From Escherichia phage FFH2: 64,000 nt of DNA. The stretch's first letter is position 1. Every line of letters begins with the position of its first letter. A model generated the notes under the pieces. It did no database searches. It saw only the letters and a list, made by a program, of their open reading frames with translations, and was not told where the DNA came from. The stretch is taken from sequence record KJ190158. The stretch is one strand, 5' to 3'. Below, piece by piece: positions 2,920 to 29,102 of this stretch. The position numbers and the translations under genes were made by a program.

Positions 2920-4104
2920 TTAAGCTTTAGCTAAAATGGCGCTAAACTCTTCACCAAACTCTTTTACAATCTTCATCAGGTTTGGGTACGCTTTGATCAG
3001 TTGAGCAACGATCTTGTCACGCCCTTTACCGATAAGCAAGGCATTTCCTAAGGCATTAGGTTTCATCATCGCCATAAAGACTGAGAATACAAAATCTCGG
3101 TTCTCGTCCTTGAAGTTTTCCCAAAGGAAATCGAGGAAGTTTGCCACGCAGCTGACAAGATCTTCATCTGAGATACTTGCATTTTCCATCATATTACGAA
3201 TAGCGATACAACCTTCAGATCCAAGAATCCACAAGATGTCTGGCTGTTTAGGACCTACGTATTCTTTGCAACCCCCTGCCATAATCCGACCGATTTCCGG
3301 TAAGTTGCGTTTCTTGGTGTGGTAGGTCCAGATCTCTACCGCTGCAGTGTGACCAATAGCACCTTGCAGAAGAACACGGGCCATAGCGTCAGAAATAATA
3401 CCGCTGTCAAAATCGTGCAAGATGTCAGATGCAGCAACCCAAGATCGTGGTGTGGCAAAAGATGGACAATTAATCTCAGCCATAGCCTCATAATTATCAA
3501 TAGCTGATGGAACTCTTTTCAGATACCCAATCACAGAGGAGTGAACCCCGTTGAGGAATGCGTAGTCCTCAATAAACACCTCTGCATTGCTTGTAACCTC
3601 TACAATGATAAAGCGGTTAGCCAGAGGGGCTTCGAGCGCCGAAAGAACCGCACCATCTGTAGAACGGTTACCAGCAGCCACAAAAACAGAACCTTTAGGG
3701 AATGCATAGGTACCGCACTTGTGGTCAAGCATAATTTGCATTGCAACCTTTTGCAGGTAGTTATCTGCATGAGTGAGCTCATCCAGAAAGATAATTCCGC
3801 TCCAGTTCGGATCTGCAGGCCAAAATTCTGGAATTGCAAACACTGTACGTGTAGTTCCATCAGCTTCTACAGGGATAGGTAGCCCAGATAAGTCGGCAGG
3901 ATCTTTATCTGACAGTCGCACGTCAACAAGGTTGTCATCTCGCTCACCGAACATATTATCAGCGATCTGCTTCATCACCTGGCTTTTACCCACACCCATT
4001 GGTCCCAAAATTAGGACAGATCGGCTATGACGTTGGGCAAACTGAATAATAGCTGGCAACTCACGGACAGTGATTTGACCACTTTCGAATACGTTTCTTG
4101 ACAT
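2920..4104 (-). CDS. MoxR/CbbQ-like AAA+ ATPase (AAA_5-type)
   Basis: Walker A GPMGVGKS and Walker B IIFLDEL in the translation; size and layout typical of MoxR-family ATPases. Confidence 0.7.
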   Translation of the reverse strand: MSRNVFESGQITVRELPAIIQFAQRHSRSVLILGPMGVGKSQVMKQIADNMFGERDDNLVDVRLSDKDPADLSGLPIPVEADGTTRTVFAIPEFWPADPNWSGIIFLDELTHADNYLQKVAMQIMLDHKCGTYAFPKGSVFVAAGNRSTDGAVLSALEAPLANRFIIVEVTSNAEVFIEDYAFLNGVHSSVIGYLKRVPSAIDNYEAMAEINCPSFATPRSWVAASDILHDFDSGIISDAMARVLLQGAIGHTAAVEIWTYHTKKRNLPEIGRIMAGGCKEYVGPKQPDILWILGSEGCIAIRNMMENASISDEDLVSCVANFLDFLWENFKDENRDFVFSVFMAMMKPNALGNALLIGKGRDKIVAQLIKAYPNLMKIVKEFGEEFSAILAKA

Positions 4105-16600: not shown

Positions 16601-19313
16601 CTGTAAAGATTGCAGGATTTACCCTTGCCTGACGCGGAGGGTAACCTGTAGTTTGGTTAAACCACAGATTGCAAGAGTAATCCCTCATATAGTCATAATC
16701 AGAGTATTTGTTTACATCTTCGTTCCAACACATGTTCAGGTTGGTACCGCCCATGCATACAATATATTCTGCGACATACTTATCACTTCTGGTAGGAATA
16801 CCTATGAACCATCTGTTAACAGGCTCATCCCAAGCTGTGCGCTCATCTTTAACGCAGATAGCAATCCAGTCATGTGTTCCTGTTTTCTTGCACACATCTC
16901 GCTTCATACCATAGTAGAACTCTTTAGTATTCGGCTCAGGTGCATTTATCAGGTAACTCCATGCCTGATTTGCATAAGTCCCATTGGTGCGCGGATCATG
17001 ATCAAAGGCATACATGATGATCCTTTCCCCACCAAGATGTTCGCCAAGAGTAACTTTGACATTCACATCGCCGTAACCGTTGCGAACAACATCCATATTG
17101 TCAATAGAGATGCCTCTAGGAGTGTAGGCAATTTTCAGTGAGTTATTCTCATTAGCGCCACCAAGAGTGACCCCTATGTTGTTTGTTGTCCCGTCGGCAT
17201 ATCTTACTGTAGCTTCCCAGCGTATTCCGAAATATCCTGCATCATGGCTGACAATTTTCAGTGTACGAGCTCCCGGGTGAGGTTTTCCAGGATCAGGCCA
17301 AGGGTCTGGGTGTTCGTGAACAGTCAACGACGTTCCGTTCTGCTCATTAACCTGCAACATTTTACCACCCTTGCCATTAGGATTGAACTCCCACAAGGCT
17401 TGTGTTTTCACAATATTGTCATACGTGGCGCGTCTTTGATCGTAGATCTCTTGGGTCACATCATAAGTGACTGATCCAGCATCCATTCTGTAGAGTCTGA
17501 CCATATACGATGTATCCCCTTCTACTGCAGGCTGGGTCCCATTCAGCCCAAAGTATACAGTATCGTTAACATGGAACTGCTTGTTTCTACCAACGGTATG
17601 CCACTTGCCGTTGGACGGATACGCAGGAACTATAGTGTTCCAGTTCAAAGTCCTTGTCGTATAGGTTCTTCCAGTGCCATGCTTGTCATGGTAGGTGATC
17701 TTGATAGAATACAAACCACGTCTGTTGATGTTACGGTTATACTGGGTGACCACAACTTCGTTAGCACCACCATGGTTCCAGTTAGTGGAGAACTGATAGT
17801 TTGCATCTGTAACAACAGTGCCTGCAGCATTTACCAACTCAATCTTGTCAATAATGAACGTAGCACCCTCCGGCTGAGGTTTCAATTTCATCTTGACAGT
17901 ATCTCCGATGTAAATGTTGCTAACATTGCTCACACCATTGACATCAAAGATGTCTTCGATACCCCAGCTATCTACCGGGACATTTTTATACCAATTCTCC
18001 GGAATCTCTGTGAACCCTTGGCTGTTAAGTCTGCCGCCAAAGAGGTTATTAGATCCTGAAAAACTACCACGTGGTATTCCTGACCACCAAAGCTTTCCAT
18101 TTACCACACAGAATGTGCCTAAGAAACCTTCCCTGTGGATCCCTTGAAAATAAACGCTTTCTGTCCAGCTTACTGGCTCTGTCTGTTCAACAAACTTAGC
18201 TGTTGCCAGCGCTCTGTAATGAATAAAATTGGCCCTAGGACTATTATTAGCAGATTGAGCACCAATATCGTTACACAGGTTTCTGGAGAAACCACGGTAC
18301 TGTTTTGTACCATTATTGAAGAAAATTCCACTAGTCCCGTACCCGCGAGCCATAATTACTTCATGGGTATAGGTGATGTTAAGGCTTCTCCACGTGTCGT
18401 CACCCCAAACATCCTGACCATAAAACACATTAACAAGCTGTTGGTCATCAGGTTTGTGCATCCTTTCTGTGGCTATAATTGCACCATTAGGTCCACACAT
18501 GAACCCTTTCCATGTCTCGCCCACCGGGATGCCTTTAAACTGGTCAAGAGTCACATGCTCGGCTGGATAAACTAGTGTGTTTTTGCTGTTATTTCTTAAG
18601 AAATCGTAACCTGCAATCCAGAATCCGTTAGGACCACCAAAAATAACCGAGTTGTCATGAACTTCACAATTAATTCTTGGATTTTTCCAAGGACCTGTCT
18701 CTGGACTTTCAGATGTTTCACCGATCTTAACTGGAGTAGCGTGTTGACTTTTGTCAACATGAAGAGAGCCGTAAGTATTATTGCCAGAGCCGTACAGGTG
18801 AAGCATACCATCAGCCTCTGGTGCAGCAATTACCCACACTGTATTGTTTACGCCACCCATTACTTCAACAAGTCTCTCAGGATGGGTGTCCAAATGCAAC
18901 CCTGTTACGATCTGTTCCGGCAAAGGTGTCCACTCTCTGACACAAACATCGTTTCCACCTGCTGCCTCCGATCCGATAAGACCAGCTGTGCAACCAATAT
19001 AGAAAAATTTATTATCGAATGTGCGGATTACAAATGCACGGTCAGCTCTCCAAACATGGTCTACGTTCCAAGCTGCCTCATTAGGATAGTTTATTGTATC
19101 AAGATCTCCAGTCCGACACTCTCCGAACCTATTATAGCCAGTAATATTAAGCTGACCATCATCAAAAAGTATAGCTAAGCTATTTACATAGGATACTGTG
19201 TTGCTTGTACCATCACTGTTGTCTATTGGGTATGACAGAACAGCAAGTTCCTTAATTCCACCCCTCTTATCGAGGAAATGACGACCAAGTTTTAGCAAAG
19301 GGATTGGAAGCAT
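13686..19313 (-). CDS. Giant tail fibre or tailspike-like structural protein (1875 aa)
   Basis: Size and position in the fibre block; Ig-like segment TGLVTFKATGNVTIKFVV near C-terminus; Gly/Asn/Thr-rich repetitive composition. Confidence 0.55.
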   Translation of the reverse strand: MLPIPLLKLGRHFLDKRGGIKELAVLSYPIDNSDGTSNTVSYVNSLAILFDDGQLNITGYNRFGECRTGDLDTINYPNEAAWNVDHVWRADRAFVIRTFDNKFFYIGCTAGLIGSEAAGGNDVCVREWTPLPEQIVTGLHLDTHPERLVEVMGGVNNTVWVIAAPEADGMLHLYGSGNNTYGSLHVDKSQHATPVKIGETSESPETGPWKNPRINCEVHDNSVIFGGPNGFWIAGYDFLRNNSKNTLVYPAEHVTLDQFKGIPVGETWKGFMCGPNGAIIATERMHKPDDQQLVNVFYGQDVWGDDTWRSLNITYTHEVIMARGYGTSGIFFNNGTKQYRGFSRNLCNDIGAQSANNSPRANFIHYRALATAKFVEQTEPVSWTESVYFQGIHREGFLGTFCVVNGKLWWSGIPRGSFSGSNNLFGGRLNSQGFTEIPENWYKNVPVDSWGIEDIFDVNGVSNVSNIYIGDTVKMKLKPQPEGATFIIDKIELVNAAGTVVTDANYQFSTNWNHGGANEVVVTQYNRNINRRGLYSIKITYHDKHGTGRTYTTRTLNWNTIVPAYPSNGKWHTVGRNKQFHVNDTVYFGLNGTQPAVEGDTSYMVRLYRMDAGSVTYDVTQEIYDQRRATYDNIVKTQALWEFNPNGKGGKMLQVNEQNGTSLTVHEHPDPWPDPGKPHPGARTLKIVSHDAGYFGIRWEATVRYADGTTNNIGVTLGGANENNSLKIAYTPRGISIDNMDVVRNGYGDVNVKVTLGEHLGGERIIMYAFDHDPRTNGTYANQAWSYLINAPEPNTKEFYYGMKRDVCKKTGTHDWIAICVKDERTAWDEPVNRWFIGIPTRSDKYVAEYIVCMGGTNLNMCWNEDVNKYSDYDYMRDYSCNLWFNQTTGYPPRQARVNPAIFTDTQVFLTKQANEVQTFKNTYDPNKWFYNCYGAYFWGPAELPDSGSCFEAATYGSDYIMGQVKKYKMIPGPETLGNAVDPYINFAALHANMDGARYPFDVPVANGYRRVVMIIKCDLIGKQVLAENGTSTHPFEVALHYQFADSPYAGDKRISDTDSKRCKKVLLGAGWWWYEFDLTDKFTDDTKTLTGIRLDLGENMHKAVCDGTYGDPTVYLKYVSLEHPEDAVIGPKLKLFGAWIAKDRVGMGKKVRGFLIDAGTEDMLVNAVWPTLEGTAYNNAARSINWFNIHRAMWTTNCYLWRELNDQAFGFSNGRRMAIICWTTLQRCYDHDYEIGGRAWKDIRDRIIYNFADDNGGGAYNFGTSRLIHLNGSSAYKKEGYSGSMIEWGLVKDARVLMGQQLAAAIGPSAVQSVKPAWFDIPLWSPGTPGTAAINPTTGDLEISWEDLKQVGGWDKTGYQVQWWRADGSLAADEFVKDNFYTMSSAKAQQLFGQATPSTITMSMCCKDNRTGALGPRVAKVFSGIKWNLPVQSISWKQIGDNKLLVTPACQFNATLNVDPAVAANSAKASDFSVSNTAMADVRKIDTLNARITCKNTYGTFQIINNFTDADSKVVRTASQTLSLGTLAYAALITEQSATLQGGGVGKSIATPVWKPNEWVVFDLTVDFSSDNNWTWVRNCLSQLMGGPSSVSDSHDSTDPSVFQVGKTHPETGETLPDRKYALVCISYGKADVTFSGTHTYNGTYNFSRKYSLKAGNIIDEVGVLYNPGNGIGIVGGKLQMQEPSITPSNVSGIRKTWESSNTNIATVDATTGLVTFKATGNVTIKFVVRDDAGRKTSSTSFTVRQMAPQWFIWEGNPLDGAYPRPAGTSNMRVFTGPVMDNPTTTTNPTFFGAYIPEIIGLPRNQIQLLFGAGVDGLATFGYSDNIDAARSSGWIGFKFQWYPGGRTLGLASIGIMLPGNQQYHLEAYTNFPS

Positions 19314-19320
19314 TGTGTTC

Positions 19321-19354
19321 TCCAGATAAGAAAACCGCCCCGTCAGGAGCGGTT
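19321..19354 (-). terminator. Hairpin AACCGC...GCGGTT with U-rich tail, copy 1
   Basis: Inside duplicated unit. Confidence 0.45.
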
Positions 19355-19361
19355 AGATATA

Positions 19362-19649
19362 TTAACGTTGTGCAATTACTACGTCTACAATATCACCAAC
19401 ACCACAATACGTTAATTGCAGCAAGGTAACACTGTTAGCCTTGTTGTTAATAACAGGTGTTGCCGACAGGATAGCATACTTATCGTGCAAAGTCACGTTG
19501 TGACCTAGTACTGGGCTATTTACATAGGATACTGTGTTGCTTGTACCATCACTGTTGTCTATTGGGTATGACAGAACAGCAAGTTCCTTAATTCCACCCC
19601 TCTTATCGAGGAAATGACGACCAAGTTTTAGCAAAGGGATTGGAAGCAT
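19362..19649 (-). pseudogene. Chimeric ORF made by tandem duplication: N-terminus of the 1875-aa fibre fused to C-terminus of the 581-aa protein
   Basis: First 45 aa identical to start of 13686-19313 product; last ~43 aa identical to end of 19698-21443 product; lies within duplicated copy. Confidence 0.45.
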
Positions 19650-19656
19650 TGTGTTC

Positions 19657-19690
19657 TCCAGATAAGAAAACCGCCCCGTCAGGAGCGGTT
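19657..19690 (-). terminator. Same hairpin, copy 2 (after the 581-aa gene)
   Basis: Identical to copy 1, offset 336 bp. Confidence 0.45.
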
Positions 19691-19697
19691 AGATATA

Positions 19698-21443
19698 TTA
19701 ACGTTGTGCAATTACTACGTCTACAATATCACCAACACCACAATACGTTAATTGCAGCAAGGTAACACTGTTAGCCTTGTTGTTAATAACAGGTGTTGCC
19801 GACAGGATAGCATACTTATCGTGCAAAGTCACGTTGTGACCTACAGCATCCTGAATGACATAGATAACTGCAGTGAATGGATAAGGTTTATCTTCCGCTG
19901 ATGTCCCAGGCCACTGTCCTATTGTAAAATCCCCTTTCGCGTGGACAACATACATGCTGGCCTGCCCGTTAGGTGTCCATGTCCCACTGGACGCGTCAAC
20001 CTCCTCTAAGTCAAAATCTACCTTTCCTGCGTGGAAAGTAGGGGCAGTAATGGTTTTACCCGCCTCAATTTCTTGAGAGGTGGTTATCTTACCACTGGAG
20101 TTAATGCCATTACAGACAAAGTTGACATTAGAGAAGTCTGGCAGCCACCCGGTCACTGTGCCGGATATTTCAAGGTTGTGAAGGTGGGTGGTGCCAGTCC
20201 CTGCGGCGTTTAAACTAACATCTCCATTTACCTGCAAGTTTCTGGTAATGTTGCAGTTTTCAGAGTTTGCAGTTGTTGCAGTTAAAGTGGTGGTGGTTAG
20301 CTCGGTAATTGTACCTTTATTGGCTGTAAGCCCTTCTCCTTCAAAAGTTGCACGCTCATTGACTCTTAGAGTATTCAGAGCTATATTTTGGATAGAGGCT
20401 GTACCTCGAATAACTACAGACCCGCCAACCTCCAAATCGCCATTTATCAATGCATCACCCGTGCTTTCAATATAGCTAGGGTAGATCATGGTGCCATCGA
20501 CAGAGTATGTTATCCCTGTAACGGTACCTGTCACCTCAAGGTTCTTAACCCTGGTGGTCCCATCGACCTGCAATGTCGGTTCGGTTGCTGCCTTCATGGC
20601 ATTACCACGAATGTACACGTAGTCAAAAAAGTTATTACCCAGACCATCAAAATGCACATCGTTATTATTAGCCACTGGTTTCCCAGAAGTTATAGTGTCA
20701 GCTATAACCCTGTGGGTGGACACTTCATGAGGTTGCAGCTCTGTACTTCTCCAGTCTGCATGCTTAGGATCGCTCCACGCAAAAGTAAGTGTAGAAGTAT
20801 TTGCCGTGAGGATTAGATTCCTAAAGCGTGCAGTAGAATCTGCCCCATTAACAGGTCCATGTAAGGTAAGGGTGCCACCAACTATAGTGTTAGCGAGTTC
20901 TGTAAGACCTTTTACCACCAAAGACCCTACAGTAACTTTCATCCCCTCCATGGCTTTAAATATGCTATCAACATAGTCAACAACAAACTCTGTGTTTGCT
21001 ATGGACTCTGACTTATCGTCCATTGGAGGTGTAGGTACTCGTGGGTCACCTTCGAACCTCGGGCTGTTAAGTTTTGCGTAGTATTTTGCCATTACTGCAG
21101 AGTCGGTATATAATCTCCAGTTTGGAGATTGTGAAGGATCTGCTGGCATTCTAACCGGGTTAGATTTTGATGCTGCGGGAGCGTACCACCACTGGGGGCC
21201 TGTGTCCCCTTTAAACTCGTACAGCTGGTTAAAAACTGTTGTGGATGCACCATACGCCCAAGGGATCGGTGGCGTTTTAAAATAAAGGTTGTCAAGCATG
21301 GCTTTTCGTACCGTAGGGATGGTGGTCCCATCCTCTACGACAACTTCATCCACAGCGTTACCGTTGACAACCAAGTGCAAACGTTCAGAATCAACAATTA
21401 CTTGATCTACCGCCTGCTCAAAGCTTGTCATGTCTTGCGCCAT
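19698..21443 (-). CDS. Tail fibre or tailspike-like protein (581 aa)
   Basis: Position in fibre module; Thr/Gly/Asn-rich repetitive beta-type composition. Confidence 0.5.
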   Translation of the reverse strand: MAQDMTSFEQAVDQVIVDSERLHLVVNGNAVDEVVVEDGTTIPTVRKAMLDNLYFKTPPIPWAYGASTTVFNQLYEFKGDTGPQWWYAPAASKSNPVRMPADPSQSPNWRLYTDSAVMAKYYAKLNSPRFEGDPRVPTPPMDDKSESIANTEFVVDYVDSIFKAMEGMKVTVGSLVVKGLTELANTIVGGTLTLHGPVNGADSTARFRNLILTANTSTLTFAWSDPKHADWRSTELQPHEVSTHRVIADTITSGKPVANNNDVHFDGLGNNFFDYVYIRGNAMKAATEPTLQVDGTTRVKNLEVTGTVTGITYSVDGTMIYPSYIESTGDALINGDLEVGGSVVIRGTASIQNIALNTLRVNERATFEGEGLTANKGTITELTTTTLTATTANSENCNITRNLQVNGDVSLNAAGTGTTHLHNLEISGTVTGWLPDFSNVNFVCNGINSSGKITTSQEIEAGKTITAPTFHAGKVDFDLEEVDASSGTWTPNGQASMYVVHAKGDFTIGQWPGTSAEDKPYPFTAVIYVIQDAVGHNVTLHDKYAILSATPVINNKANSVTLLQLTYCGVGDIVDVVIAQR

Positions 21444-21452
21444 GATTTCTCC

Positions 21453-21719
21453 TTAAGCTTTTTGCTCTTCGTTTTTAACGTGGTCAGGGTGCTGGCAACC
21501 CCACCGGAGCGAGATGAATTTGCTAATAAGCTGGGGGCAAGCTACTGAAGGCGCGTATATCCACGCATACCATTCAGGAAGCGTATCATTATACCCCATA
21601 TGAATAAACACCCCAGTCATCACCGCCATGCCTATGTTCGACCATAGCTTAGTTTGGGACACTTTCGTAGGGTCATCAGATGCCGCAACCAGTCCCCATA
21701 AAAACTGAGTTAGTTTCAT
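21453..21719 (-). CDS. Small hydrophobic protein (88 aa), membrane-associated
   Basis: Hydrophobic stretches FLWGLVAA and IGMAVMTGVFIHMG; immediately downstream of RBP paralogue 2. Confidence 0.35.
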   Translation of the reverse strand: MKLTQFLWGLVAASDDPTKVSQTKLWSNIGMAVMTGVFIHMGYNDTLPEWYAWIYAPSVACPQLISKFISLRWGCQHPDHVKNEEQKA

Positions 21720-21730
21720 TTACCCTCTTT

Positions 21731-22774
21731 TTAAGCATAAGATATAGTGATCCATTGACCATTTACAAGTTTTTGGATAGCACCTGTCCAGTAATCACCT
21801 TGATAAGGGTGTTTATAAGCGTAGTTACCAGAGCACATCACATGTCCAGGGTAGACTCTTGACTCTCTGTAGGTGGTTTTGAAACGGTTTGCTATCCTTA
21901 CATCATCAACCCCTCTGCTGGGCATAGGGATAGTAAGGTTACCACTACTGTCTGCGCCGTTACCATTTACCCTGCGGACCACGTTTCTTCCACCAACTGT
22001 TGCATATTGACCCCTGACTGTTTCATTGTTACAATCAACTCTTCCACCTATTTGAGCGCTTCCGCAGGATTGTTGTCCGTTAACAGTGGCTCTTGGTATC
22101 GTGACCGCATTGGCATTTGCAGAGGAACTTTTTGCATCGTTGCATTCAAGATTTCCTTGGATGGCCAGTCTTGCACGGTTGGCAGTTATAGCATTGAGCT
22201 TCATAGCCGAAAACACAGGCTGCCCACCAGAAGGTTGAAATCTCCAACGGAACCCGTCTATTTGGTGAGAAGGATCATCAAGGTCTGTGCCGTCAGCACC
22301 ACCGATGTTGTCCATAATCCAGAAATCCATCGTCGTCTTGTCTGGAGTTATGGTGGTATATATTGCCGCATTGTCTGTTGACGCAGATGCAAACTCGATT
22401 CTTTGAAGACCTAAAGTTTGAGTCTGAGTCATTATGTCTCCAGACTTGTCAACATACAGATCGTCCATTTCTTCAGGCGAGTATACATTGAGAACTTGAC
22501 GTGCAGCAGCTTTGTCTGGAACGTCTGCTAGATTATTAGTGACCCTTAAGAATCTATTATCCCATCCTGGGACAACATCTTCTGTTAGATGCTTTAACCA
22601 CGCAGAAAGCATGTGAAGTTCAAAGTTAACAACTTCACATGCCACTCTTTGTGTCATATCCCAACCTTTCAATCTCTCTTCTTTTTTTGGTTGAGACTTA
22701 TTCAACTCTCCCGTATTTTCAAGCACAACATCCTGATTGGCCCAAATATCAAGAGGGATAACTGGTTTAGTCAT
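21731..22774 (-). CDS. Receptor-binding tail fibre protein, paralogue 2 (347 aa)
   Basis: Conserved termini with 23789-24829 product (N-terminal PLxIWA, central RWRFQP and LNAITANRA, C-terminal QKLVNGQWITxxYA); divergent centre. Confidence 0.55.
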   Translation of the reverse strand: MTKPVIPLDIWANQDVVLENTGELNKSQPKKEERLKGWDMTQRVACEVVNFELHMLSAWLKHLTEDVVPGWDNRFLRVTNNLADVPDKAAARQVLNVYSPEEMDDLYVDKSGDIMTQTQTLGLQRIEFASASTDNAAIYTTITPDKTTMDFWIMDNIGGADGTDLDDPSHQIDGFRWRFQPSGGQPVFSAMKLNAITANRARLAIQGNLECNDAKSSSANANAVTIPRATVNGQQSCGSAQIGGRVDCNNETVRGQYATVGGRNVVRRVNGNGADSSGNLTIPMPSRGVDDVRIANRFKTTYRESRVYPGHVMCSGNYAYKHPYQGDYWTGAIQKLVNGQWITISYA

Positions 22775-22814
22775 CGCGTTCTCCTGAGAAAATTCCTTAG
22801 GACTATTTTAACAC

Positions 22815-22854
22815 TTTAGAGAACAAAATGCAAGAACGGAGTCCTTTCCGTTCT
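22815..22854 (-). terminator. Intrinsic terminator, 8-bp stem AGAACGGA/TCCGTTCT plus U-tract
   Basis: After gene 22864-23178, before RBP paralogue 2. Confidence 0.5.
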
Positions 22855-22863
22855 GACCTTTGT

Positions 22864-23178
22864 TTACCTTTTACTATGCTCTACGAGCATGTGCAAAATC
22901 TTTTGTACATCAGCTCGGATACCGGAGACATCTGTCCTGACATCCTGCTTAAGGTCGTTAATATCGGCCTCTAGCTTGCTTAACCGGGTCTCGATAACGG
23001 AATCAAGTTTATCTTTTGTAACCATGCTGTTTTTCACTAAGATGAGGTCTTTCTCCAGTTCATCCAACCTCTTGGAAATGCCTTTCCATTTGGTGTGCCA
23101 CTGGTTGAAAGCCCATACACAGATCGGGACAACGGTACCCATGCAGATACCGTACAATGCCGCCAAATCCAACTCCAC
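22864..23178 (-). CDS. Membrane-anchored coiled-coil protein (104 aa); holin or other function unresolved
   Basis: N-terminal hydrophobic helix LAALYGICMGTVVPICVWAF followed by heptad-like charged region. Confidence 0.35.
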   Translation of the reverse strand: MELDLAALYGICMGTVVPICVWAFNQWHTKWKGISKRLDELEKDLILVKNSMVTKDKLDSVIETRLSKLEADINDLKQDVRTDVSGIRADVQKILHMLVEHSKR

Positions 23179-23189
23179 AACACCTCCTC

Positions 23190-23774
23190 TTAGAGGGTAG
23201 GTCGCTCCGGGAAGAAAATGTCAGGGGCTTTAGATGTATCTATTTCAAGAAGTTTTACCCTGTACATTTTCAAATCTCTGATGTTACGTTTCTGGTCATC
23301 AGTAAGATCATATTCAAGGTCAATCATGTCTTGATAGGCACCAATTCTAGCAGTAGCCCAAGCAAGTTCTGTCTCTATGACACCCTCTGCCTGTTGAACA
23401 AAGAATTCATTATCTGTGACAAATTCATCACCAACTAAACGCAAAGCGTCGTGGTGAAGCATAATGTTTTCTGGTACCTCTTCTTTTTTGGCGATAACCA
23501 CACGAAGACCTGGAGCAGGCCATAAGGCATCAGGTTCTTCTGTAGATGTCTTAAGAATTCCCTTCTCGTCAACAAGTAGGAAGATACAACCCGGATTTTC
23601 TTGTCGTAATGTTCGTGACTGCACATACCAATCGCCATCATCATTACGTAAAAAATACCCAGTGTATGCGGTGTAATCCTCAACCTCTTGAGGGGTCAGC
23701 TCCTTGGTTTCCTTGTTGGAGTGGTATTCGCCAGATCCCGGTTGGTAAAGTTTAAACTCTTGAAGTATTTTCAT
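23190..23774 (-). CDS. Putative tail fibre assembly chaperone (194 aa)
   Basis: Immediately downstream of RBP paralogue 1; C-terminal KLLEIDTSKAPDIFFPERP resembles the conserved tail of tail-fibre-assembly proteins. Confidence 0.45.
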   Translation of the reverse strand: MKILQEFKLYQPGSGEYHSNKETKELTPQEVEDYTAYTGYFLRNDDGDWYVQSRTLRQENPGCIFLLVDEKGILKTSTEEPDALWPAPGLRVVIAKKEEVPENIMLHHDALRLVGDEFVTDNEFFVQQAEGVIETELAWATARIGAYQDMIDLEYDLTDDQKRNIRDLKMYRVKLLEIDTSKAPDIFFPERPTL

Positions 23775-23788
23775 GCTAGTCCTCCGAT

Positions 23789-24829
23789 CTATGCATAATT
23801 AACAGTGATCCATTGACCATTTACAAGTTTTTGTAAAGGTCCTGCCCAGTAGGTTGAACCACGCATCTCTTTTTTGTCACCGAAATGCCAGCCTGTGACA
23901 ACGTAGCCGTTGCGGATTGGAGATTCAGAAACGCCGTCCACAAGTCTTGCACCGATTCTGATGTCTTGCACACCTGTCTGCGGGATAGTGATCGTTACAT
24001 CACCGTTACCGTTAGCCGTCACTCCATTCACGGAGCGCACCACATTTCTGTTACCGACAACACAGTGCTGGCTTCTTACAACCATACTGTCACAACTTGC
24101 ACCACCATTAACATATACTGACCCAGCCGTCAACTGACTAGCCACATTACAGTTGGTGAATGTTGCTGTATTGCTGATAGTAAGGTTATTGCACCTCATG
24201 TTATCGACAACTTCAACATTGCCTACCACTTTCAACAGCGCACGATTAGCCGTGATCGCGTTAAGGTACATCAAAGTGAACTCTGGATTAATATCCGGCT
24301 GAGTTGGCTGGAATCTCCAACGAAACGCATCTACCGTAGATGTACCACCATCATCAAACGACCCAGCATTATCACTTAACCCAAAGTCGAGAGTTGTCTT
24401 ATCCGGGCCAATAGTTGTCTCTATCCAAGCCTTATCTGTCTCGGCAGCTTTAAAGTTGATACGTTGCAAACCCAATGGGCCTGTCATTGTATCACCTGTA
24501 ACTTTTACATACCTGGCGTCTGCCTCTTCCTTAGTAATAATCCCAAGGTTTCTACGGGCAACAGGAATGTTCAAAAGATCACTCAAGTTATTATCACGTA
24601 CCAGATAACGGCCTTCTTGAGCGGGGATCTGCTCGTCAGCAATGTATTTTGCCCAAGTTCCGAGCATATTGAAAATATAGTTAAGTTCTTCACATGAGGG
24701 CTTTTGACCAAGATCCCAACCTTTTCTCCACAAATCATCAATCGGGCGTAGCCTGTTCTGTCTGTGGGTGTTAGGCAGAACCTGATCCTCCTCTGCCCAA
24801 ATCTCTAATGGAAAACTAGGTTTTGACAT
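23789..24829 (-). CDS. Receptor-binding tail fibre protein, paralogue 1 (346 aa)
   Basis: Paralogue of 21731-22774 with shared termini and divergent centre. Confidence 0.55.
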   Translation of the reverse strand: MSKPSFPLEIWAEEDQVLPNTHRQNRLRPIDDLWRKGWDLGQKPSCEELNYIFNMLGTWAKYIADEQIPAQEGRYLVRDNNLSDLLNIPVARRNLGIITKEEADARYVKVTGDTMTGPLGLQRINFKAAETDKAWIETTIGPDKTTLDFGLSDNAGSFDDGGTSTVDAFRWRFQPTQPDINPEFTLMYLNAITANRALLKVVGNVEVVDNMRCNNLTISNTATFTNCNVASQLTAGSVYVNGGASCDSMVVRSQHCVVGNRNVVRSVNGVTANGNGDVTITIPQTGVQDIRIGARLVDGVSESPIRNGYVVTGWHFGDKKEMRGSTYWAGPLQKLVNGQWITVNYA

Positions 24830-24841
24830 TTTATCTCCTGA

Positions 24842-26914
24842 TTATGAGAAGTCTGGCGGGACAACATCCTCTACATACCCTTTCAGAGCAACCTGCCCCA
24901 TATGAAGCACGGTAGAATCTCTAGCGGTAACAGTGATGCTGTCAGACATTACTTGCGGGTATGCCCACACATACTGTTTTACCTCAGGGTATCTATACTC
25001 TATAGTTGCCATGTTTCCGCAAATACATCTCCATAAAAATTCTTGGTAATTCCTAGTTGGGTCGTATCCATATACCGGAGCAAGCTCTTTACTAGGAACG
25101 AACCCTGCAAGGTATTGTATTTCAGACGGTTGCCAACCTAACTTAACGATAGGTATGTTTACAGACTCTTTTGCCTTTTCAATACCTCCCTGCATCACCC
25201 AATCGTAGCACTCGGTGCAGAAGAAATCAAGAGCACCTGCTTCTTTTTTATATTGGTCGGCAAGGTTCAGCTTTTGCGTAAGCTCGGTTTCCATAATAGT
25301 TGGGAAAAACAGTAAAGCTGTCATCTGAGCTGATGCAGCGTGTGCCTTTATTGCCTTTGAAATAGCCGCAATACGAGCGCCAAGCTTACCACGACAAAAT
25401 GCTACATACTTGTCGTAAACACCGCCAGTTTTAGGATCGTCAATAGTCCCAATATCTAATGCATACTCACCTGTCTCATCATAAAACGCCTGCTTTGTAG
25501 GGTAATCATAAATACAAGGTCTACGAGTATCGGTATTGTACCACCACCACGGTTCACCAACCTGCATAATCACTGGCAGGTTGTTTCTCATAGCGGCTGA
25601 TGCAAAATTCTTAAATACTGCAGTAAGGAAATTCATACCCTCTTCAATGGTTGGAGACAGGAGGTAGCTACAGGGTGTATACCCTGTTTTAGCGTAGTTA
25701 TCGTTCCAGTCTCTTTGGGTCCATTCCAACGGGCAGGCATCGCTGAAAAGCTCAAAACTTACAGATTGCATAACGTCGAAGTTATGTCGTTTGGCATTGT
25801 ACATAAAATCATCGTGCCATTTATAAGCTGCAGCGTTTAGCGCCCCTGTTCTGTTTATAGACCATTGGGTTCCTGACCATGTGTAGTCATAATAATGACT
25901 CATACCAACATAATGGTTTATGGTTCCGGTATAGCCCAGACGCTTGATATTGTTCAACACCCTTAAAGGAGATACGTTCCACATATCGTCATATGCGGTG
26001 CAGATCCCGACGTCGTGCTCTTTAACCTGAATATTGTTAAGTTGCATCATTTTCCAGCCCGTGTCTGGCTGAAGCAGATCTAGGCGCAACTCACACTCTA
26101 CATTTTCCGTTCTCGGGTCTGTGCTATTACTTACCCAGTCTTTAGGCATAAGCGGTATTAAAATCCTTCTCACCTGCCGAGGATCAACACCCATCATGTT
26201 GTTGTTCTGATCCATCCCGACGCAGTCCTCGAAATCAATATGAATCTCTGCAACATTCTTATCCTCTGAGATGCTGACAGCATATTGAGCTAAAGGAACA
26301 TAGATGATTGTGCCATCAACAAGGTCTACAGTCATAATCATCTTTTCAGGAGTGGAGAAGTTGCTGGCATTGGTTATTGACATTCTGAACCAAAGCTTGG
26401 TGTTTCTCATCTCATAGTGATCATCAAACCCAATACCGAAATGGTCATACTTGTCAACTGTTTCCCAAATGCACCCAGCCATACCTCCATATGTTCTTGA
26501 CACTAAACGGTTAATACAACAGTTGTCGTCTGCAACAATACAGGTACTTTCAGTCTGCTGAGTGGTTGTAACCCAATACCTTGGGTGAAACATTCTCTCC
26601 TCAACAGTATCCCAAGATATCCTGTCAAGATTCTCATCTGAAACTATTGTACATTTCGCCCTTTGTGTTCCAATCATCACCCCTTGAGATTTTGATGAAA
26701 ACTCCATAAAGAAGCTTCTTGGCAACCTGTTGGGTAATTTGTCAACAATTTCTACGGGGATCTCAATACTGGTTGCCCCAATTGGGATAGTTACATCTCC
26801 CTCAACATGATTATAATCCCTACCAGGAACGGCAGTATCCTGAACTGTTCGGTAATGAAACTGTGCAGCCATTGTAGAGTAATCACGGTAAGGTTTAAAA
26901 ACAGCTGTTGCCAT
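24842..26914 (-). CDS. Tail-associated protein (690 aa), possibly enzymatic
   Basis: Large ORF between baseplate genes and RBPs; Trp/Tyr-rich globular composition unlike the fibrous neighbours. Confidence 0.4.
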   Translation of the reverse strand: MATAVFKPYRDYSTMAAQFHYRTVQDTAVPGRDYNHVEGDVTIPIGATSIEIPVEIVDKLPNRLPRSFFMEFSSKSQGVMIGTQRAKCTIVSDENLDRISWDTVEERMFHPRYWVTTTQQTESTCIVADDNCCINRLVSRTYGGMAGCIWETVDKYDHFGIGFDDHYEMRNTKLWFRMSITNASNFSTPEKMIMTVDLVDGTIIYVPLAQYAVSISEDKNVAEIHIDFEDCVGMDQNNNMMGVDPRQVRRILIPLMPKDWVSNSTDPRTENVECELRLDLLQPDTGWKMMQLNNIQVKEHDVGICTAYDDMWNVSPLRVLNNIKRLGYTGTINHYVGMSHYYDYTWSGTQWSINRTGALNAAAYKWHDDFMYNAKRHNFDVMQSVSFELFSDACPLEWTQRDWNDNYAKTGYTPCSYLLSPTIEEGMNFLTAVFKNFASAAMRNNLPVIMQVGEPWWWYNTDTRRPCIYDYPTKQAFYDETGEYALDIGTIDDPKTGGVYDKYVAFCRGKLGARIAAISKAIKAHAASAQMTALLFFPTIMETELTQKLNLADQYKKEAGALDFFCTECYDWVMQGGIEKAKESVNIPIVKLGWQPSEIQYLAGFVPSKELAPVYGYDPTRNYQEFLWRCICGNMATIEYRYPEVKQYVWAYPQVMSDSITVTARDSTVLHMGQVALKGYVEDVVPPDFS

Positions 26915-27600
26915 TAACCCTCCTGTCTAGTTGCGTTTACTGTAATACTTTCACAATAAATGGTTGTGGTGTCCCAATCAGGTCTTACGTCAGGAACATA
27001 TAGCAAAGTAGCCAGCCCACCAACTCCGAATTGGTTTTCTTCCCACACTGATCCGAAGCCAAGAGCTGTAGAGTCCCCTTCAAAACCAAAAGCTTGCCCT
27101 TGCGATTCTGTAAGACGCAAATGACAAGGCAATGGTAGCATATCTAAGATCTGATCGATAGACTGCAGTATGTCAAAGCAAGTTTTTCTAATATTTATGT
27201 CAAACCTGAAGTTGTCTCCTTTCCACGTATCGAAATTGTCTCTTCCGAACAATTGTCGCAAGGTGGAGATGACATCTTCGCGAGTCCCGCCCCTTGATGC
27301 TGCGGCCTGCTGAATAATCAGTGTGGCACGAAAATCAGCATCTGAAAGTCCATTCCTAAGAATACCAAGTTGATTACCAACTTCGTCAAGGTATCTTCCG
27401 CTGGCATTGTTAAGCAATCTTCCTTCAGCCAAACCTACCAGCATCTTATCAACATCCTCCAACCTTTTAAGGTATACGGTTAAGAATGTGACTAAATTAA
27501 CCTTCTCAGCCAGAAAATCTCCAGGTAGGTAGTCAAGACCTCCCTGAACAAAATCTGGCAGAGTGTGGATGTGGTTAACATCCGACTTAATCTCTGCCAT
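26914..27600 (-). CDS. Putative baseplate protein (228 aa)
   Basis: Start overlaps stop of baseplate-J-like gene; position only. Confidence 0.35.
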   Translation of the reverse strand: MAEIKSDVNHIHTLPDFVQGGLDYLPGDFLAEKVNLVTFLTVYLKRLEDVDKMLVGLAEGRLLNNASGRYLDEVGNQLGILRNGLSDADFRATLIIQQAAASRGGTREDVISTLRQLFGRDNFDTWKGDNFRFDINIRKTCFDILQSIDQILDMLPLPCHLRLTESQGQAFGFEGDSTALGFGSVWEENQFGVGGLATLLYVPDVRPDWDTTTIYCESITVNATRQEG

Positions 27601-27611
27601 ATCTCGCCGCC

Positions 27612-29102
27612 TTAAATAGTTTGTTGGAAAGTTATATTACTTTCGTCGAGGTCAAACACCTCGGTCATGTTCGCAACAATATCGTTTGTAGTGTAAGCTT
27701 CATCAGAAGCTCCTACGGATTTAACTTGAATTACCAGTCTATTAAATCTACCTATTGACACAGCAGCAGATGCAGCACCTACCAATTGGATATTATACAA
27801 CGTATCTGCAACATCCAGTCCGTTAACAACCTGCAAAAGAGCCTCTATAATGGCATCTTTTTCGGTTGTAGAAAGCGCAGCACCGGAGTAGGTAATTCTT
27901 ACATCTAGGCGGTAGGTGTTTGCCTTGGAGTAATAAATTCTTTCAGTTTGACCGTCAGATGTAGTGACATCGTAGAAAATATTACCATAAGTCCTGTTCG
28001 TACAGGCTATAGTTTGGTAAAGTGCTTGGCAAATGTCTTCCGTTGCACCACCAAACACAACCACTTGGAACTTGTAAGGAGGTATACCTTTAGCATCAGT
28101 TTTATCGGTGTTGTTGGAGAACACTCTCACTTTCTCAACACCTTTCACCTCGCTTACAGCGCTAAGGATTGCAGGACGGGTAGCCTTAGATGTTAACTGT
28201 TTTGTGCTGGAAGCTCTTAAGCGATACTCTGAGTCTTTCTCAACATCCCTGCCCTCATTGAATCTTTCTCGGTTGGTAAGCTTGATGAATCCACTGGGAG
28301 TAGGTGACATTGTTGTCACGGTTTCTGCCTCTCTTGACAGCTCACCAGCCTCGTTAGCGATAACATCCAGTGTGATAGTTCTTTCCCCTACAATCGGGGA
28401 TACTCTGAAATCTACCCTGCTATTAAGTCCAACTTGATCAAGATTCGAATTGTACCCTATCCACAACGTTCCTGTCAACATATCGATCTGAATCAAATCG
28501 TCGTTCAACAGGGTTGTATTATCGACAATGAATTGCTTAATCTCTCCGTAAAAGCTTGGCAAATCAGAAGAGTCCAGAGACTTATCTGTTAAAACCAGGC
28601 TTTTTGTTTTGATACTTCCATCTGTCTGGTTGGTAATTTGAAAGTTGTATTTACCAATCCTTAGGTCCGGAGCATTTATTCTGTGAGCAATAAGATTCCC
28701 TGCTACTTGCACATCATTACTAAGAACAAAGTTGCCACTGTCCAGCGTATAAGTTTTGGAATCATAAATCATATTGTACGGCACAGTTGTGTTGATTGTC
28801 AACTGGCAGGTACCTGATGATTTAGAACGGCCTCTTCGGTAAATACCCTGTCTTCCAAGAAGCTCATCTAGGTAAATACCTTCTGCCCCATACAGCGTCT
28901 GTGATGCGTATACAGATGCTGCCATAAGAATAAGTTGATACTCTCGCTCGTTGAAGATAGTGGTCAGCTTATCTGCAACGGAGTTACTCTGTACGTTGAA
29001 GTTTTCGCCAAAAGCACGGATCAGGCTTTGCTTAGTTTCAACGATTAGGTCATTTAGGGTTGGTATAACGAAACCAGCCTCTGTCAATCCATACTTAGCC
29101 AC
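27612..29102 (-). CDS. Baseplate J-like wedge protein (496 aa), GTG start
   Basis: N-terminal pattern resembles baseplate-J family; GGAGGAG RBS 6 nt upstream of GTG; sigma70-like promoter upstream. Confidence 0.45.
   Translation of the reverse strand: MAKYGLTEAGFVIPTLNDLIVETKQSLIRAFGENFNVQSNSVADKLTTIFNEREYQLILMAASVYASQTLYGAEGIYLDELLGRQGIYRRGRSKSSGTCQLTINTTVPYNMIYDSKTYTLDSGNFVLSNDVQVAGNLIAHRINAPDLRIGKYNFQITNQTDGSIKTKSLVLTDKSLDSSDLPSFYGEIKQFIVDNTTLLNDDLIQIDMLTGTLWIGYNSNLDQVGLNSRVDFRVSPIVGERTITLDVIANEAGELSREAETVTTMSPTPSGFIKLTNRERFNEGRDVEKDSEYRLRASSTKQLTSKATRPAILSAVSEVKGVEKVRVFSNNTDKTDAKGIPPYKFQVVVFGGATEDICQALYQTIACTNRTYGNIFYDVTTSDGQTERIYYSKANTYRLDVRITYSGAALSTTEKDAIIEALLQVVNGLDVADTLYNIQLVGAASAAVSIGRFNRLVIQVKSVGASDEAYTTNDIVANMTEVFDLDESNITFQQTI

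Follow-up and report, generated by a model that had tools for sequence, protein, structure and literature searches.

Two paralogous short tail fibre genes and a candidate holin gene in the rV5-like fibre locus of Escherichia phage FFH2

The 64,000-nucleotide stretch of Escherichia phage FFH2 DNA analysed here (sequence record KJ190158; hereafter the window) comes from a Vequintavirus and carries, on its minus strand, a short tail fibre (STF) locus with two paralogous fibre genes, a tail fibre assembly gene and two genes for small membrane-type proteins. An 8-kb query around this locus matched 117 phage records, the closest being Escherichia phage SophiaRose (99.5%; rV5, 99.1%), and the locus was present at 94–99% nucleotide identity in 110 of 118 records. 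The coordinates and minus-strand placement of the five central open reading frames (ORFs) were verified. Minus-strand ORFs mapped one-to-one onto rV5 genes gp34 through gp28, with proteins 99–100% identical to their rV5 counterparts, and the rV5 names are used throughout. The features from gp33 to gp28 are as follows.

23789–24829, minus strand: gp33, short tail fibre paralogue 1 (346 aa); 100% identical to rV5 gp33; phrog_4465, E 2e-171
23190–23774, minus strand: gp32, tail fibre assembly chaperone (Tfa, 194 aa); Caudo_TAP PF02413, E 9e-12; phrog_136, E 2e-36
22864–23178, minus strand: gp31 (104 aa), N-terminal transmembrane (TM) helix and coiled coil; phrog_5345, E 1e-48, a family of unknown function
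22833–22854, minus strand: terminator-like hairpin past gp31, 8-bp stem followed by a T-rich tail
22804–22813, minus strand: late-promoter motif TGTTAAAATA ahead of gp30 (rV5 P030)
21731–22774, minus strand: gp30, short tail fibre paralogue 2 (347 aa); phrog_4465, E 3e-166
21732–21793, minus strand: 3' end of gp30, apparently homogenised with that of gp33 (23790–23851); 62-nt direct repeat, 84% identical
21453–21719, minus strand: gp29 (88 aa), putative holin with a charged tail after two helices of weak hydrophobicity; phrog_1322, E 1e-32
19698–21443, minus strand: gp28, lateral tail fibre (581 aa); phrog_4549, E 8e-252; tail fibre by annotation in every relative; follows gp29 in the P030 unit

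An initial annotation, made from the letters of the window, had proposed that 23789–24829 and 21731–22774 encode paralogous receptor-binding proteins (RBPs) with conserved termini and divergent centres. The paralogy was borne out: end-to-end alignment of gp33 and gp30 gave 153 identities in 356 columns (43%, E 2e-94), a similarity extending well past the short termini, and the shared N-terminus and the RWRFQP, LNAITANRA and QKLVNGQWITxxYA blocks were all found in both proteins. The pattern proposed for them was not. Similarity runs throughout and the middle is the most identical part, with identity in 30-column windows peaking at 43–70% over columns 106–210 and dropping in columns 46–90 (27–30%), 211–255 (23%) and 301–345 (27–33%); in the C-terminal part strong conservation is confined to the last ~20 residues.

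An identity of 42.3% between rV5 gp30 and gp33 was reported by Kropinski et al. (2013), who also noted that both resemble T4 gp12 by HHpred (98% and 97.7%) and found both in virions together with gp32; they suggested that the pair recognises two lipopolysaccharide (LPS) chemotypes (PMC3606486). Virion proteomics, to which the initial annotation had looked for a missing paralogue, thus places both copies in the particle by published mass spectrometry (PMC3606486). Maffei et al. (2021) described the two paralogous short tail fibres and their chaperone as homologous to Mu GpS/GpU, found no appreciable allelic variation in them, unlike in the three large lateral fibre genes, and noted a single copy in phi92-like phages and Phapecoctavirus (PMC8594841). 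The paired paralogous short tail fibres have therefore been in print since 2013. These papers treat the same locus without discussion of gp29, gp31, the replacement of a polytopic gene or the homogenisation of the 3' ends (PMC3606486, PMC8594841); what is new here is the probable insertion of a fibre gene into an older trio of membrane genes and a testable assignment of gp29 as a holin.

The reading of both paralogues as receptor-binding fibre proteins was supported. In PDB sequence searches, gp33 residues 1–108 and gp30 residues 1–83 matched the wedge-docking domain of the phiTE STF (9CUY_c) at E 1.4e-19 and 1.4e-9, respectively; residues 70–117 matched a repeated shaft motif of another short fibre (9ZD7), and gp33 residues 286–343 matched Mu gpS (5YVQ, E 6e-6). 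With a family profile the values were E 2e-34 for 9CUY_c and E 8.6e-13 for the Mu gpS tip (residues 284–347). On these alignments, gp33 and gp30 have one type of baseplate-docking head and one type of tip in common. Two results weigh against this picture: gp30 searched alone against Mu gpS stayed below significance, and an AlphaFold2 (AF2) monomer of gp33, based on a 32-sequence alignment, was poor (predicted local distance difference test score, pLDDT, 62). The gp30 tip segment aligns collinearly with that of gp33. A poor monomer is expected for an obligate trimer, and the model was discarded; Foldseek with it against the PDB returned nothing at E < 0.9. No T4 gp12 chain was among the PDB hits at E ≤ 1 in sequence and profile searches with gp33 and gp30, and a PDB sequence search with gp32 gave no meaningful match.

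The N-terminal relatives point to the place of these fibres in the virion. Residues 3–92 of the phiTE STF were modelled wrapped onto the wedge (PMC11972413), phi92 gp147 is the downward fibre III, fixed to the wedge protein gp145 (PMC13450770), and LL12 gp29, the equivalent of rV5 gp30, aligns over nearly its full length with phi92 gp147 (PMC7229145). Upstream of gp33 lie the following genes.

24842–26914, minus strand: gp34 (690 aa), fibre/baseplate protein directly upstream of gp33; PF23845, E 4e-80; PF23844, E 9e-13; PF03160, E 5e-6
26914–29102, minus strand: gp35 (228 aa) and gp36 (496 aa, wedge), baseplate proteins by annotation in relatives

Since the phiTE and phi92 structures put the homologous STF N-terminus on the wedge (PMC11972413, PMC13450770), gp35 and gp36 are probably, by analogy, the proteins onto which the N-terminal domains of the STFs dock. 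gp33 and gp30 would presumably be trimeric, with the N-terminal ~80–110 residues docking a downward fibre on the wedge as in phiTE and phi92, and the C-terminal ~60 residues forming a Mu-gpS-type tip. gp33 follows the baseplate wedge genes, with gp34 between, and is itself followed by Tfa; gp30 is displaced and lacks a Tfa of its own. As an observation on gp34 itself, the protein combines a Calx-beta domain with an N4 gp65-type 'non-contractile tail sheath' N-domain and TIM barrel, and it answers to published descriptions of a fibre with a deacetylase domain, which is linked there to ECA/NGR recognition in Vequintavirinae and N4.

Known systems each resemble the locus in part. phi92 gp147 and the phiTE STF (9CUY/9MJN) have the homologous N-terminal wedge-docking domain, but their phages carry one such fibre where the FFH2 locus has two, and the phiTE fibre, of 554 aa, has a coiled-coil shaft and an immunoglobulin-like tip and is a proposed binder of the flagellar filament (PMC11972413). 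Mu gpS/gpU (5YVQ, 9KI1) have the homologous C-terminal tip with, as here, a Caudo_TAP chaperone directly downstream; Mu, however, has an invertible S/S' segment, in place of which the present locus has two complete genes, both of them expressed, the second without its own chaperone. T4 gp12 has the same proposed role, a baseplate-bound fibre for irreversible binding to the LPS core, but differs in its attachment domain and in its chaperone, gp57A there and Tfa here. Among fibre tips, that of gp33 (residues 287–344; 23789–23962) is 58.6% identical to the fibre C-termini of the unrelated 52-kb Salmonella phages BP63, SPLA2 and renfri, closer than it is to gp30 in the same segment, which shows that tip modules move between phage groups.

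The initial annotation had gone further, to a duplicated and diversifying host-range cassette, which would be changing actively to follow variable receptors. Ratios of nonsynonymous to synonymous substitution rates (dN/dS) were calculated against FV3, JEP1 and WM, the most divergent members of the genus fetched (93–95% nucleotide identity). They were 0.02–0.035 for gp33 and 0.063–0.069 for gp30, with baseplate genes at 0.01–0.02, and within the genus amino-acid identity did not fall below 98.3% for gp33 or below 95.7% for gp30. A cassette of this sort would fit the concentration of differences between gp30 and gp33 in the distal tip and one shaft segment, the somewhat greater variability of gp30 relative to its neighbours (95.7% against at least 98% amino-acid identity; dN/dS of 0.06–0.07 against 0.01–0.04) and the mobile tip modules to which the gp33 tip points. 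It is nevertheless very unlikely, for both fibre copies have dN/dS far below 1, the locus stands at 94–99% nucleotide identity in the 110 of 118 records given above, with the gp30 and gp33 tips largely near-invariant, and the allelic variation of the three large lateral fibre genes is missing here (PMC8594841). There is also no second Tfa, and neither repeats nor recombination machinery were seen in the locus; inverted repeats were absent from it, and the only direct repeat was the 62-nt one at the conserved 3' ends. 'Diversifying' thus gives way to strong purifying selection on both copies, and 'cassette' to the duplication of a fibre gene alone, with one Tfa and with no paralogy between gp31 and gp29. 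The fibre pair would be better described as two fixed specificities for terminal receptors, presumably variants of the LPS core, than as a rapidly changing cassette.

The Tfa after paralogue 1, recognised in the initial annotation and matched by Caudo_TAP as listed above, is the only one in the locus for two fibres, and single gp32 probably folds both tips. Third-position identity between gp33 and gp30 is 22–42%, so that synonymous sites are saturated, but over the last 20 codons nucleotide identity is 83%, with 80% at third positions. This suggests gene conversion or a constraint at the nucleotide level in the 3' ends. Folding of both tips by gp32 would explain the near-identity of the last ~20 residues, and the conserved end is probably the part that contacts the shared chaperone. 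In the FV3 clade, the end of gp30 has drifted slightly (QKFVNGQW).

Comparison with sister genera bears on the origin of the second fibre. Two copies occur in Vequintavirus records only, against one in Avunavirus, Seunavirus, GAP31-like, Klebsiella and Phapecoctavirus phages, and gp33 is the positional orthologue of the single STF in the sister genera. In Av-05, SSE121, CR3, P8734 and W70, genes for wedge and baseplate protein (and a gp34-like one) precede STF and Tfa, after which come a gp31-like gene (104–112 aa), a gene here called X (128–157 aa), a gp29-like gene (86–89 aa) and a large fibre; Aeromonas phage 2L372X is arranged similarly, save for a gap without annotation at the position of X. 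X is a polytopic membrane protein of phrog_7451. It was sought in the window and found absent, and it has no similarity to gp30. In Vequintavirus, the gp31 stop is instead followed by an 89-nt spacer holding the hairpin and TGTTAAAATA, and then by gp30, gp29 and gp28. The TGTTAAAATA promoter before gp30 is listed as P030 in Table S4 of the rV5 paper (PMC3606486), and the motif TGNTAAAATA occurs six times in the window, all on the minus strand, against 0.9 expected.

The presence of the membrane-gene trio in genera with a single STF implies that gp31 and gp29 predate the duplication and that the extra fibre was inserted into their cluster. The gp31-like, X and gp29-like genes would then form an ancient trio between STF-Tfa and the next fibre, kept from E. 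coli to Aeromonas phages. The second fibre probably arose or was acquired once in the Vequintavirus lineage, bringing or gaining its own late promoter P030 and replacing a 157-aa polytopic membrane gene within this older conserved cluster. gp30 would have diverged fastest in the shaft segment 211–255 and the distal tip 300–330, and the pair would afterwards have been frozen by purifying selection.

An alternative origin for gp30, as a xenologue that came with its promoter from another phage rather than as an in-situ duplicate, was also considered. Capture would account for the saturation of synonymous sites between gp30 and gp33, for a terminator/promoter boundary belonging to gp30 alone, which moreover takes the place of a different gene, and for the exchange of tip modules among unrelated phages. 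In a neighbour-joining tree (no bootstrap, hence weak on this point), however, the gp30 and gp33 clades are sisters and mutual closest relatives, with gp30 on the longer branch (41–44% identity to the outgroup fibres, against 49–51% for gp33), and no nearer donor lineage was found among 33 homologue clusters. We regard capture as rather doubtful.

The initial annotation had read both small proteins of the locus as membrane-type, and had considered 'holin-like' as one option. The first description fits gp31, in which the TM check found a strong helix, and fits gp29 only loosely. The maximum 19-residue Kyte-Doolittle (KD) mean of gp29 is 1.05 and its two helices average 0.89 and 0.87, the family means being 1.1–1.2, such that weak hydrophobicity is family-wide. 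The family signature consists of an S-H-T-K-x-W motif, two helices rich in small residues (Gly/Ala/Ser/Thr) and a variable charged tail. The AF2 model of gp29 is helical at pLDDT 59 and was not used as evidence. Together with gp31, gp29 had dN/dS of 0.00–0.04 against FV3, JEP1 and WM, which indicates that both are real genes under purifying selection. Word-indexed homologue searches with gp29 and gp31 returned close relatives only, Pfam and NCBIfam searches of the two gave coiled-coil noise only, and a PDB sequence search with gp29 found nothing meaningful.

A profile of gp29 and its close relatives, searched against 1.8 billion proteins at E < 1e-3, recovered 73 representative clusters, all of phrog_1322, and it was the gene neighbourhood of these remote homologues that backed the holin-like option for gp29. 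The neighbourhood sample comprised 80 IMG/VR loci of a 14-member distant subset, most of them on contigs below 60 kb. The subset aligned to the gp29 group by hhalign at 99.3% (E 2.7e-20), and one of its members matches rV5-like gp29 directly (tblastn E 2e-6, reciprocal). Among 39 distinct ORFs directly upstream, domain matches were to Peptidase_M15_4 (7), GH108 (3), Amidase_2 (3), Peptidase_M15_3 (2), Amidase_3 (1) and GH19 (1), or up to 17 peptidoglycan hydrolases if none overlap; the companion domains VanY (6) and PG_binding_3 (4) were not counted. The endolysin is expected to be about one gene in 50–70 in such phage genomes, and enrichment is argued from this expectation rather than from a formal control set. 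Nearly half of the distinct cases thus have an endolysin immediately before the gp29 homologue, and the enzymes belong to six or more unrelated types; such a pattern is the usual signature of a holin slot.

The genes on the other side of the gp29 homologues agree with this signature. Directly downstream were Rz (4) and Rz1/LysC (2), and by simple rules an ORF of 90–260 aa with an N-terminal transmembrane domain (TMD) was present in 43 of the 80 loci, 20 of which also had a lipobox ORF in the 1.6 kb downstream. Where inspected, the lipobox ORF lay embedded in the TMD ORF and its mature part was rich in proline, as is classic for Rz/Rz1. The whole cassette is seen in Bise (L098), a cultured Mu-like phage of Pseudomonas, in the order Mor, M15 endolysin, gp29-like gene (ORF 3001–3243), Rz with embedded Rz1, a protein with TMD and coiled coil, and terminase. 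Within the gp29 family, a sub-group (L056–L075; IMG/VR contigs of 26–155 kb, several from the human microbiome) has proteins of 160–167 aa with an N-terminal extension relative to gp29 and no same-strand ORF of at least 60 aa directly downstream.

The rV5 endolysin (ORF 89) is soluble, lambda-R-like and without an N-terminal hydrophobic segment, and the phage consequently needs a hole-forming holin. With the putative late promoter P030 upstream of the gp30-gp29-gp28 unit, gp29 is probably, on sequence grounds, a late-expressed holin encoded in the fibre operon. T4 offers a parallel of position, its holin gene t lying downstream of fibre gene 38, much as gp29 stands at the end of a fibre cluster. 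Class II holins and pinholins, such as phage 21 S68, resemble gp29 in their small size, in a pair of helices rich in small residues and in the charge of the C-terminal tail. Unlike in pinholin systems, the endolysins in the cassettes of the gp29 homologues are mostly soluble, the upstream ORFs of endolysin length mostly lacking an N-terminal hydrophobic or TM segment, which points to a large-hole holin rather than a pinholin.

Several points weigh against a holin assignment for gp29. Its helices fall below standard TM thresholds, and domain databases offer little: DUF2644 (PF10841) was matched weakly by 4 of 70 distant relatives (best E 6.3e-5), gp29 and its close relatives had no DUF2644 match at E ≤ 10, and gp29 has no Pfam hit. 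There was also no match to a named Pfam holin family among the gp29 relatives, no mention of DUF2644 was found in the literature, and in the phage collection gp29 is nowhere recorded as a holin. In its own genome gp29 lies ~50 kb from the endolysin, which in rV5 is at about 71.6 kb, in the replication region, with the spanins beside the terminase (PMC7344957 for Rz/Rz1); the lysis genes of this phage group are scattered. There are, moreover, other candidates: Kropinski et al. proposed rV5 gp129 as the holin by TM prediction alone, and the putative holin of the BASEL collection, bas54_0115, is an early-region ORF without family support. The gp29-like protein of the cassettes could also be an antiholin or another lysis accessory. 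On balance we consider it likely that this is an rV5-like STF locus with two old and stable fibres, one of them an inserted copy, and that gp29 is its holin.

Two further functions for gp31 and gp29 were weighed. Superinfection exclusion or receptor modification had been raised in the initial annotation, and we found no supporting evidence for it. Exclusion proteins are encoded next to RBP genes in T5 (Llp) and in T1/phi80-type phages (Cor), and they are typically expressed early. That gp31 and gp29 are superinfection-exclusion or receptor-masking proteins beside their cognate RBPs is suggested by their own position next to RBP genes, by the annotation of the phAPEC8 counterpart of gp31 as a 'lipoprotein' (phrog_15210) and by the filing of the gp29 family under 'moron / host takeover' in PHROGs. 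gp31, however, has no lipobox, an acidic N-terminus and a predicted N-out/C-in topology, both genes are part of a late structural operon with a late promoter ahead of it, and in small phages the gp29 homologues lie between endolysin and spanins, not beside fibres, all of which renders this function highly improbable.

Somewhat less remote, although still unlikely, is a role in the assembly or attachment of the short fibres and gp28, be it as membrane-associated chaperones or as small adaptors in the virion. The gene order with STF-Tfa and the following fibre is strictly kept over large evolutionary distances, and a few database records label gp31 or gp29 as structural or tail-fibre proteins. 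By contrast, CB7_32–35 went undetected in mass spectrometry of Certrevirus CB7 virions, in which the STF CB7_31 and the fibre CB7_36 on either side of them were found, phAPEC8 has its gp29-like gene apart from the STF, and gp29 homologues occur where the neighbours are lysis genes, not fibre genes. Peptides of gp29, gp31, gp30 and gp33 tried against the rV5 supplements gave no match, even for the fibres reported as detected, and this result is uninformative on gp29 and gp31.

gp31 itself begins at a GTG codon with a GGAGGT Shine-Dalgarno sequence, and has a TM helix at residues 3–24 (19-residue KD mean 1.9) followed by a charged helical region. From the acidic N-terminus and the K/R residues after the helix, it is predicted to lie N-out/C-in, with about four periplasmic residues, one TMD and ~80 cytoplasmic residues forming a coiled coil. 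A gp31-like gene stands directly after Tfa in Seunavirus, Avunavirus, Certrevirus and in Klebsiella and Aeromonas phages; the family was not found beyond large rV5-like phages, and a PDB sequence search with gp31 gave nothing meaningful. At a guess, gp31 might be a partner or regulator of gp29. A broader scheme, which we find possible but doubtful, would make gp31, X and gp29 an ancient late lysis-control module in the fibre operon of all rV5-, PVP-SE1-, phiTE- and phi92-like myophages, with gp29 the holin, gp31 and X regulators, and Vequintavirus having swapped an antiholin-like X for the second STF.

Two known lysis proteins were tried as counterparts of gp31 and rejected. The Mu releasin gp25 (DUF2730; PMC9239132) has the same architecture, ~100 aa with a short periplasmic N-terminus, one TMD and a cytoplasmic helical domain, but gp31 had no DUF2730 hit, hhalign against the cassette proteins gave 9.7% probability, and rV5 has no signal-anchor-release (SAR) endolysin. 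An inner-membrane spanin (i-spanin, Rz) would be N-in/C-out, where the charges of gp31 predict N-out/C-in, and an Rz/Rz1 pair is already present beside the rV5 terminase (PMC7344957).

In Mu-like cassettes of the gp29 type, a 92–119-aa protein with an N-terminal TMD and coiled coil and the motif LPxxYVRREDxIR was seen after the spanins (L098 3734–4012; L022 6989–7345; L055 6842–7201; L061 6981–7334; L085 6905–7258). It is releasin-like in position and architecture, and the Bise copy, the only one scanned, had no Pfam hit at E ≤ 0.01.

rV5-like phages are a group widely used in therapy and biocontrol collections. For host-range engineering, gp30 and gp33 would be treated as two stable terminal-receptor modules with probably one common chaperone. 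These phages have no verified holin, and gp29 is a concrete candidate. If correct, this reading of gp29 would supply a function for at least 73 protein clusters at present called 'membrane protein' or 'hypothetical'. Under the broader scheme of a lysis-control module, a holin family so far unannotated (phrog_1322, weakly DUF2644), at work in Mu-like phages and others as well, would have gp29 as its first recognised member.

Lastly, two observations concern the records themselves. Sixteen GenBank records (MG0656xx) named 'Campylobacter phage', with C. jejuni as host, are 98–99.5% identical to the E. coli Vequintavirus locus, and their host label looks doubtful. In the window, a near-tandem 336-bp duplication at 19179–19843 (19179–19507 repeated as 19515–19843, 329 nt identical, with a 7-nt filler at 19508–19514) takes in the start of gp27, the terminator between the two genes and the 3' end of gp28. 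Through it the terminator hairpin is present twice, and a chimeric 95-aa ORF arises at 19362–19649, in which the N-terminus of gp27 is joined to the C-terminus of gp28. The duplication is absent from SophiaRose and all other listed relatives, in which the interval is 336 bp shorter, and removing one copy leaves 0 mismatches in 800 nt against SophiaRose; the duplication is either an assembly artefact or a very recent event.

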